Translations under genes and position numbers: made by a program
The notes under the pieces: generated by a model
What the model was told of the DNA's origin: nothing
Seen by the model: only the letters and a program-made list of their open reading frames with translations
Databases searched by the model: none
Shown here: piece by piece, positions 21,192-21,360 of the stretch
Numbering within the stretch: the stretch's first letter is position 1
How the letters are laid out: every line of letters starts with the position of its first letter
Origin: Candidatus Stahliibacteriota bacterium
GTDB taxonomy: Bacteria > Hydrothermota > Tepidihabitantia > SM23-42
Length of the DNA: 64,000 nt
Direction: 5' to 3'
Assembly (NCBI GenBank): GCA_030609135.1
Contig: JAUWCU010000003.1
Coordinates: 55 to 64,054, forward strand

Positions 21192-21319
21192 TAATTGTTC
21201 AATTTTCAGTGGAGAAGCGTAGTTGCGACATTTATGGCGTCTATTTATGTGGCATATCGAGACTTTCTGCACGATGAATCGTGCGACTACAATGTTCCAC
21301 CAAGTTTTGAACAATTACT
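21192..21319. mobile_element. MITE-like element E (copy 1), about 128 bp, with imperfect terminal inverted repeats TAATTGTTCAATTTTCAGTGGA / TCCACCAAGTTTTGAACAATTA and an internal GTAGTTGCGAC...GTGCGACTACA unit; abuts a consensus promoter
   Basis: About 85% identical to 62662-62819, which carries an extra 30-bp hairpin insert. In both copies the right end runs directly into TCTCTTGACA-16 nt-TATAAT, placed 6-21 nt before a start codon. Confidence 0.65.
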
Positions 21320-21326
21320 TAGCCTC

Positions 21327-21354
21327 TTGACACCTTATTAACACTTGTTATAAT
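21327..21354 (+). promoter_or_regulatory. sigma70-type promoter TTGACA-16-TATAAT; leaderless (ATG 6 nt after the -10)
   Basis: TTGACA at 21327-21332, TATAAT at 21349-21354, ATG at 21361. Confidence 0.5.
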
Positions 21355-21360
21355 ACTTAT

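Follow-up and report, generated by a model that had tools for sequence, protein, structure and literature searches.

The window analysed here (the whole stretch of DNA under study, 64,000 nucleotides long) contains two copies of a short repeat with inverted ends, each of which is followed by the same perfect promoter and by a gene. This arrangement raises the question whether the repeat brings the promoter with it, serves as a binding site for a regulator that both genes would share, or is a mobile element that landed beside promoters that were already there, and, in the last case, what put it in so particular a place.

The pair of repeats is real. In a global alignment of 21191-21318 with 62661-62818 the copies were identical at 109 of 128 positions (85.2%), the single gap being a 30-nt insertion in copy 2. 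A sequence-only reading had put them at 21192-21319 and 62662-62819; these places stand, with the ends corrected to GTAA...TTAC, and the terminal inverted repeats and inner GTAG...CTAC unit were found in both copies as it had described. Copy 1 (21191..21318, + strand) is 128 bp long, the modal length of the family, and extends from the left terminal inverted repeat (21191..21213, +, GTAATTGTTCAATTTTCAGTGGA, which is kept in both classes of element discussed below) to the right one (21296..21318, +, TCCACCAAGTTTTGAACAATTAC), around an interior (21219..21290) with two inverted GTAG-headed REP-like hairpins. It is flanked by a target-site duplication of which 7 of the 8 positions match (left, 21183..21190, +, TTAGTCTC; right, 21319..21326, +, TTAGCCTC). 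Copy 2 (62661..62818, +, 158 bp) consists of the 128-bp unit and a 30-nt nested insertion, and its duplication is degraded to a 5/8 match (left, 62653..62660, +, TGTTACAT; right, 62819..62826, +, TGTTGTCT); TGTTACAT matches at 7 of 8 positions the right-hand duplication TGTTACCT that was kept in the orthologous occupied sites L054 and L061. Both the core 21-mer and the right-end 18-mer occurred exactly twice in the window, compared to 0.00 and 0.11 times in shuffles. Only chance open reading frames of less than 60 aa overlap the element, which thus has no coding capacity. Exact look-ups of the two proteins encoded downstream returned only short Logan contigs broken within the repeat (L001 and L002, ending at 21198 and 62791), as fits a multi-copy repeat that fragments the assemblies of this lineage.

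Relatives were collected by scanning GTDB species genomes (20 stretches) and JGI metagenomes (51 stretches) for the right-end 18-mer. About 30 stretches were true relatives, and merging of the same locus across samples left about 25 independent loci, a small sample that was ascertained by one exact 18-mer of the right end and that derives mostly from fragmented metagenome contigs. The named hosts were Candidatus Stahlbacteria and WOR-3 MAGs, the genome of the window itself not being included. Some 16 full copies, of two interior classes, have 23-bp imperfect terminal inverted repeats in common (GTAAYTGTTCAATTTYCRGTGGA ... TCCACCAAGTTTTGAACARTTAC), the end pair of the element being GTAAYTGTTCAATTT ... 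AAGTTTTGAACARTTAC. Element length ranged from 110 to 295 bp with a mode at 128 bp (exactly 128 bp in 7 loci). Target-site duplications of 8 bp were evaluated in 16 full-length copies: the match was 8/8 in nine and 7/8 in three more, and the mean match of the flanks was 6.7/8 at offset 0 versus 1.8-3.2 when shifted by 1-8 nt. Copy 1 was 97.6% identical over 126 nt to an element that precedes the S12 gene of another MAG (L018); this homology stops at the GTAA/TTAC ends (21193-21318) and the flanks are unrelated. The orthologous AbiE locus (L054) was 97% identical to that of copy 2. In the class 2 elements (L053 and L058, 173 bp) the same 23-bp ends surround a wholly unrelated interior, and in a short form at the L28 gene (L013/L071) little beyond the ends is kept. 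Empty sites in related genomes had been proposed as a way to define the boundaries of the element: among the dispersed copies at the roughly 25 loci both filled and empty sites were found, the site of copy 1 being empty in L086-L089.

The target duplications, the discrete GTAA...TTAC ends and the near-identical copies at unrelated loci establish transposition, and what had cautiously been called MITE-like is upgraded to a true MITE; by comparison of the loci, the repeat is shown to be a non-autonomous MITE of the WOR-3/Stahlbacteria lineage. The family is new, of a kind that is known. None of the loci yielded a transposase or an autonomous element that has these ends: a second end was not encountered within several kb in the search for an autonomous partner, no transposase adjoined the solo right ends (L027 and L038), and scans of viral contigs for both ends gave chance matches only. 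We also observed one pair of loci (L025 and L062) that share the MITE and the right flank and differ in the left flank, with a matching 8-bp duplication (CCATTTTA) in L025 only, so that L062 looks like a recombinant between two MITE copies.

The interior of the element has a history of its own. Its GTAGTTGCGAC...GTGCGACTACA unit is a REP doublet, its type being an abundant one in this genome, and comprises in copy 1 the hairpins at 21219-21241 (+, GTAG-TT-GCGACA-TTTA-TGGCG) and 21269-21290 (-, GTAG-TC-GCACGA-TTCA-TCGTGC). A search with the right inner block, allowing 3 mismatches, found two more sites in the window, with compensatory changes in the GCACGA-TGAA-TCGTGC hairpin, and about 25 units (GTAG-TN-stem6-TT[TC]A-stem6), mostly in inverted pairs in intergenic DNA, were recovered in the window by scanning for a GTAG head with a short hairpin after it. 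Such REP-like hairpins were located at 2531-2552, 8224-8356, 16190-16245, 29548-29571, 32214-32237, 34252-34323, 36396-37061 and 39049-39122, those at 8224-8356, 16190-16245, 34252-34323 and 36396-37061 forming clusters. Their stems co-vary between copies. These units suggest that a WOR-3-type genome has a REP/REPIN system of the RAYT type. The REP/REPIN hallmarks (a GT[AG]G head with a palindrome, in an inverted doublet) were found in the interior units only. We rejected the idea that the whole element is a REP doublet moved by a RAYT, since the mobile unit has GTAA...TTAC ends and 8-bp duplications.

The interior is also a hot spot of nested micro-insertions, and the same locus differs by small inserts between samples. 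The extra hairpin that had been noticed in copy 2 is present, with the correction that the 30 nt (62762..62791, +) consist of a 26-nt CCCCGC...GCGGGG hairpin (CCCCGCCATTTTGTAAAAGAGCGGGG, 62762-62787) plus a duplicated TACA, placed after CTACA, and form a nested insertion. The hairpin has no counterpart in the orthologous L054 (...GACTACATTAG...) and occurs in the same place in L030, L072 and L073. Similarly, comparison of L021 with L051 showed a 36-nt insert (CCGCAATTCTATTTATAGAATTATAATACGAAGCGG) in the GATGAATC loop of a REP hairpin, with that 8-mer duplicated, and further inserts were found in L017, L024, L052 and L073. In the window itself, micro-insertion sites other than that of copy 2 were found at 2602-2652, 8377-8430, 29639-29692, 32242-32294 and 36741-36797. 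The loops of the REP hairpins appear to be preferred sites of other micro-elements.

On the right, both copies are followed by a sigma-70-type promoter that matches the consensus at 12 of 12 positions with a 16-nt spacer (TTGACA-16-TATAAT), as had been reported, at 21327..21354 for copy 1 (+; TTGACA 21327-21332, TATAAT 21349-21354) and at 62828..62855 for copy 2 (+; TTGACA 62828-62833, TATAAT 62850-62855). The distances from the -10 hexamer to the ATG were confirmed as well, at 6 nt (copy 1, ATG 21361) and 21 nt (copy 2, ATG 62877). The first gene encodes a predicted lipoprotein of 470 aa (21361..22773, +), homologues of which have an SBBP beta-propeller repeat. The second encodes a protein of 193 aa (62877..63458, +) that had no Pfam hit itself and is AbiEi-like by position, the next gene being an AbiEii gene (PF08843). 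All promoters described here are predicted, by consensus match, and a perfect promoter is nothing special in this DNA: the 64-kb window holds 11 perfect TTGACA-16/17-TATAAT sites (2839, 21327, 29812, 29940, 34474, 37121, 39383, 42659, 53143 on the - strand, 53294 and 62828).

At several promoters of the window the start codon lies 6-7 nt past the -10 hexamer, a leaderless geometry. For instance, the A of ATG 21361 lies 7 nt past the -10, at the canonical start, which predicts such a geometry for the lipoprotein gene, and the MNT gene at 62453 has the same arrangement relative to a 10/12 promoter on the - strand (62487-62460). It was likewise seen in L024, L032, L033, L053 and L073.

Whether the promoters belong to the repeat or to the genes could be decided from the loci compared. 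An element that carries or creates a promoter in the manner of Correia elements, its right end giving the -35 or both boxes, is what the window on its own would suggest, because identical CTCTTGACA and TATAAT sequences follow both copies at the same spacing, and delivery through an outward-facing -35 box was one of the two options that had been offered. The -35 was, however, found to begin past the target duplication or to overlap only the final 1-3 nt of it (the TTG of L024 comes from the duplication TTTTCTTG), the DNA between TTAC and the -35 measures 5-15 nt and is unrelated between loci, the identity of copy 1 and L018 ends with the element, and perfect promoters are frequent in the window anyway. 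Moreover, three MITE-free orthologues of the lipoprotein gene for which contigs were available (two with 85-86% and one with 58% amino-acid identity) all have the promoter, as TTGAC[AT]-16-TATAAT-5/6 nt-ATG, and align to the reconstructed empty site of copy 1 from the -35 onward. The presence of the promoter upstream of orthologues without the MITE shows that the promoter of this gene is native, and a promoter carried by the element, refuted by target duplications and empty sites, retains next to no probability. Both window copies landed immediately upstream of promoters that the downstream genes already had, and the message for annotation is that the promoter is the gene's and not the repeat's. 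The inverted repeats had also been proposed as a dyad operator that a dedicated regulator (AbiEi or another winged-helix protein) would bind to co-regulate the flanked genes, in a module that is no transposon. TGTTCAA...TTGAACA is indeed palindromic, and in the short form upstream of the L28 gene (L013/L071) the halves are almost adjacent and centred near -61. Against this, the 8-bp duplications mark the repeats as transposon ends, the half-sites are 100-270 bp apart in most copies, AbiEi adjoins just 1 of the approximately 25 loci, and the genes concerned are functionally unrelated (S12, S16, L28, S49 peptidase, ABC-transporter ATPase, HPPK and LolA), so that we consider an operator very improbable and the proposed AbiEi site as failing. 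Less probable still is a structured RNA or intrinsic terminator that would be transcribed from upstream and whose RNA structure would account for the palindromy. Both strands fold well (z-scores of -3.7 to -5.0) and the copies show compensatory differences (TAATTG/CAATTA versus TAACTG/CAGTTA); strong folding on either strand is to be expected, as any palindromic MITE must fold. No credible Rfam match was obtained (Rfam 15, none at the gathering threshold over the whole window and, at E<=1 for both loci, only a chance microRNA with E=0.62), the interior is full of insertions and is swapped wholesale in class 2, and at many copies the upstream gene is divergent, leaving nothing to transcribe them. 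A terminator was rejected specifically: the scan was empty within the element, the T-run after the long hairpin has only 4 T and starts 3 nt past the stem, and 8 of 15 upstream genes are divergent.

Another important finding was that the association with promoters is strong, polar and position-specific. The second option that had been offered, that the element targets promoter-proximal DNA, received statistical support: 19-20 of the 25 independent right ends abut a sigma-70-type promoter, compared to 1 of 15 left ends. Using a simple hexamer score of at least 9.5 within 16 nt of the element end, a promoter was detected near the right end in 19 of 25 independent loci (a twentieth is cut by a contig end) and at 1.4% of random window positions. 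The distance from the right end to the start of the -35 was 14-15 nt in 11 loci, 7-9 nt in 7, and 5 and 11 nt in 2, so that 18 of 25 loci fall in two sharp classes, the 7-9 nt class placing the -35 at the edge of the duplication and the 14-15 nt class corresponding to the duplication plus 6-7 nt. The promoter-facing orientation was the same in about 19 of 20 cases. The upstream gene lies 25-520 nt from the left end, whereas only 0-7 nt separate the duplication from the -35 on the right. Lipoprotein genes are also among the downstream genes, and L28 and S49 peptidase genes each occur twice. The two S49 peptidase genes (L015 and L053) are orthologues with 73% identity that are preceded by elements of different classes with different, perfect or near-perfect duplications (TTAGGTTA and TTTCCAAT), so that the same promoter was struck twice independently. 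The L28 genes (L013 and L048, 60% identical) both have an element upstream, at different offsets, and their promoters were apparently struck independently as well. No convincing promoter was found at the right end in five loci (L017, L027, L038, L039 and L072), and the duplications and left flanks displayed no target motif apart from A/T richness. Within this sample of loci, a polar, position-specific association with predicted promoters is shown.

What remained to be weighed is whether the bias reflects the choice of target or the survival of insertions. We lean towards oriented target choice beside sigma-70 promoters as the source of the bias. The element would be a cut-and-paste (DDE-type) non-autonomous transposon with a pair of inverted REP-like hairpins as its usual cargo, whose transposase would pick targets beside sigma-70 promoters and insert the element with its TCCACCAAGTTTTGAACARTTAC end towards the promoter, the staggered 8-bp cut being made at one of two places, immediately against the -35 hexamer or 7 bp upstream of that. 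Speculatively, recognition might involve RNA polymerase or sigma bound at the promoter, or the resemblance of the -35 TTGACA to the TTGAACA in the element ends. The complete version, in which a DDE-type family homes to sigma-70 promoters because its transposase or a partner reads the -35 or the bound polymerase/sigma, in one orientation and at +0 or +7 bp, is put forward only tentatively. It counts against oriented targeting in general that it gives no mechanistic account of two offset classes 7 bp apart. Insertion could instead be approximately random, with survival setting position and orientation, if an insertion were harmless only just upstream of a -35 and the right end, in one orientation, were tolerated or useful there, for example as an insulator, a site of protein binding or an UP-like tract rich in A/T. 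In a compact genome selection is certain to play a part, and it would by itself concentrate survivors upstream of promoters. The intergenic regions are short, and other repeats occupy similar places, the REP pair at 8224-8270 having a -35 about 19 nt downstream of it and a second repeat adjoining the promoters at 2839 and 29812. The right end has a T-run after the long hairpin that is absent from the left end. In line with this rival, selection is known to make the distribution of intergenic insertion sequences non-random (PMC2942039). Survival alone does not, however, account well for insertions at 0-7 nt from the -35 when 25-520 nt are free on the left, for offsets in two sharp classes with no spread, or for the bias that is already present in copies with perfect duplications, which are presumably young. 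The outer 12 nt are the same at the two ends, so that in the 15-nt class, which is uniformly oriented, flipping the element would alter nothing closer than about -63, beyond the reach of an UP element. The 7-bp difference between the offset classes is not a helical repeat, making an activator site on one face of the helix unlikely, and we accordingly rejected an UP element or activator site as the cause of the orientation. The divergent upstream genes (8 of 15) would give a directional terminator nothing to terminate, which weakens the idea of an insulator or terminator. Considering these points, we find it less likely that survival alone set the pattern, and we infer that target choice rather than later selection underlies the bias.

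The direction of replication was considered as a cause of the orientation and rejected. Cumulative GC skew has its minimum at about 28000-30000, and the sign change of the skew near 29-30 kb coincides with one in gene strand, gene orientation going from mostly - to mostly +; this region could be a replication origin or simply reflect the switch in gene strand. The two copies would then be on opposite replichores. Both face their gene, which, with n=2 and gene strand as a confounder of the skew, is no more than a hint.

Several other repeats were observed in the window. A second shared sequence (GGGATAAAGATGTGT[TC]CAAG(G)TTTCT..., at 2803-2838 and 29775-29811, two copies among the data examined) ends 10-11 nt upstream of perfect promoters, one of which drives a tRNA at 29847-29922, and could represent one end of a further element that abuts promoters. 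To the left of MITE copy 2, a 90-nt stretch (62510-62598) is 88% identical to 61409-61497, in the 5' end region of a Wzz/GNVR-like gene (60111-61520, -), and has the appearance of a duplicated piece of a gene, situated between the MNT-HepT and AbiE pairs. Tandem repeats of about 200 bp that are 78-82% identical occur at 43568-44772, inside the coding region 43948-45069 and upstream of it, and a separate 147-nt pair (41762-41908 and 45645-45791) is 92.5% identical; these are probably from repeat-domain surface proteins.

MITEs are common and the identity of this one is ordinary. What is unusual is the landing place, at two sharp offsets from the -35 of strong promoters, some of which serve ribosomal protein genes. 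If target choice is the cause, the family would be one of the rare examples in bacteria of transposition that is directed to promoters and specific in orientation, the prokaryotic equivalent of targeting in the style of Ty3/Tf1, and would offer a handle on how a transposase reads a promoter or the RNA polymerase bound to it. In addition, the dense, nested repeats of WOR-3/Stahlbacteria genomes receive a first description here; short-read assemblies break exactly at these elements.

Among the systems with which the element can be compared, we know of no promoter-proximal or oriented target choice described for the IS66 family. The ends do recall that family: IS66 elements have inverted repeats of 20-30 bp that start with GTAAGCG, and 8-bp direct repeats (PMC11946415). 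The repeats of the MITE are 23 bp long and begin with GTAA, and its duplications are 8 bp as well. The ends differ in that the MITE starts with GTAAYTG (GTAATTG or GTAACTG), so that just the GTAA of GTAAGCG is common, and no IS66-type transposase was found near the copies in the loci examined. The partial match of the ends makes the link with IS66 a lead and not a membership.

Correia elements have promoter boxes in their ends and duplicate TA. Like the present family, these elements (CREE/NEMIS, in Neisseria) are inverted-end MITEs about 100-160 bp long that abound near gene starts in intergenic DNA, and an association with promoters is on record (Siddique et al. 2011, as cited in PMC11602168). 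Here, by contrast, the promoter pre-exists: no promoter hexamers of the Correia type were found in the ends, the boxes are outside the element with the -35 at 5-15 nt from it, and the duplication is 8 bp.

In a published list, the REPs linked to RAYT tyrosine transposases have the form of a GTAG head with a palindrome (PMC2817692). The interior units of the MITE, with their GTAG head and short palindrome in an inverted pair, and the free-standing units in the window are similar to such REP, BIME and REPIN sequences. Movement of the HUH/RAYT type does not produce inverted ends with an 8-bp duplication. The element as a whole differs from REPs and REPINs in having exactly these, the REP pair being cargo or a nested insertion.

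The landing place is best compared with that of target-selecting elements, such as Tn7 at attTn7, the 'res hunters' Tn5053/Tn402, and in eukaryotes Ty3 (at Pol III starts), Tf1 (at Pol II promoters) and mPing (upstream of genes). Like the elements of the Tn7/Tn5053/Ty3 type, the MITE has a fixed distance and orientation to a protein-DNA landmark, or inserts promoter-proximally. The difference is that those elements use known selector proteins or host factors, whereas the MITE is known here from sequence alone. To our knowledge, a sigma-70 promoter as the landmark of a bacterial DDE element would be new.
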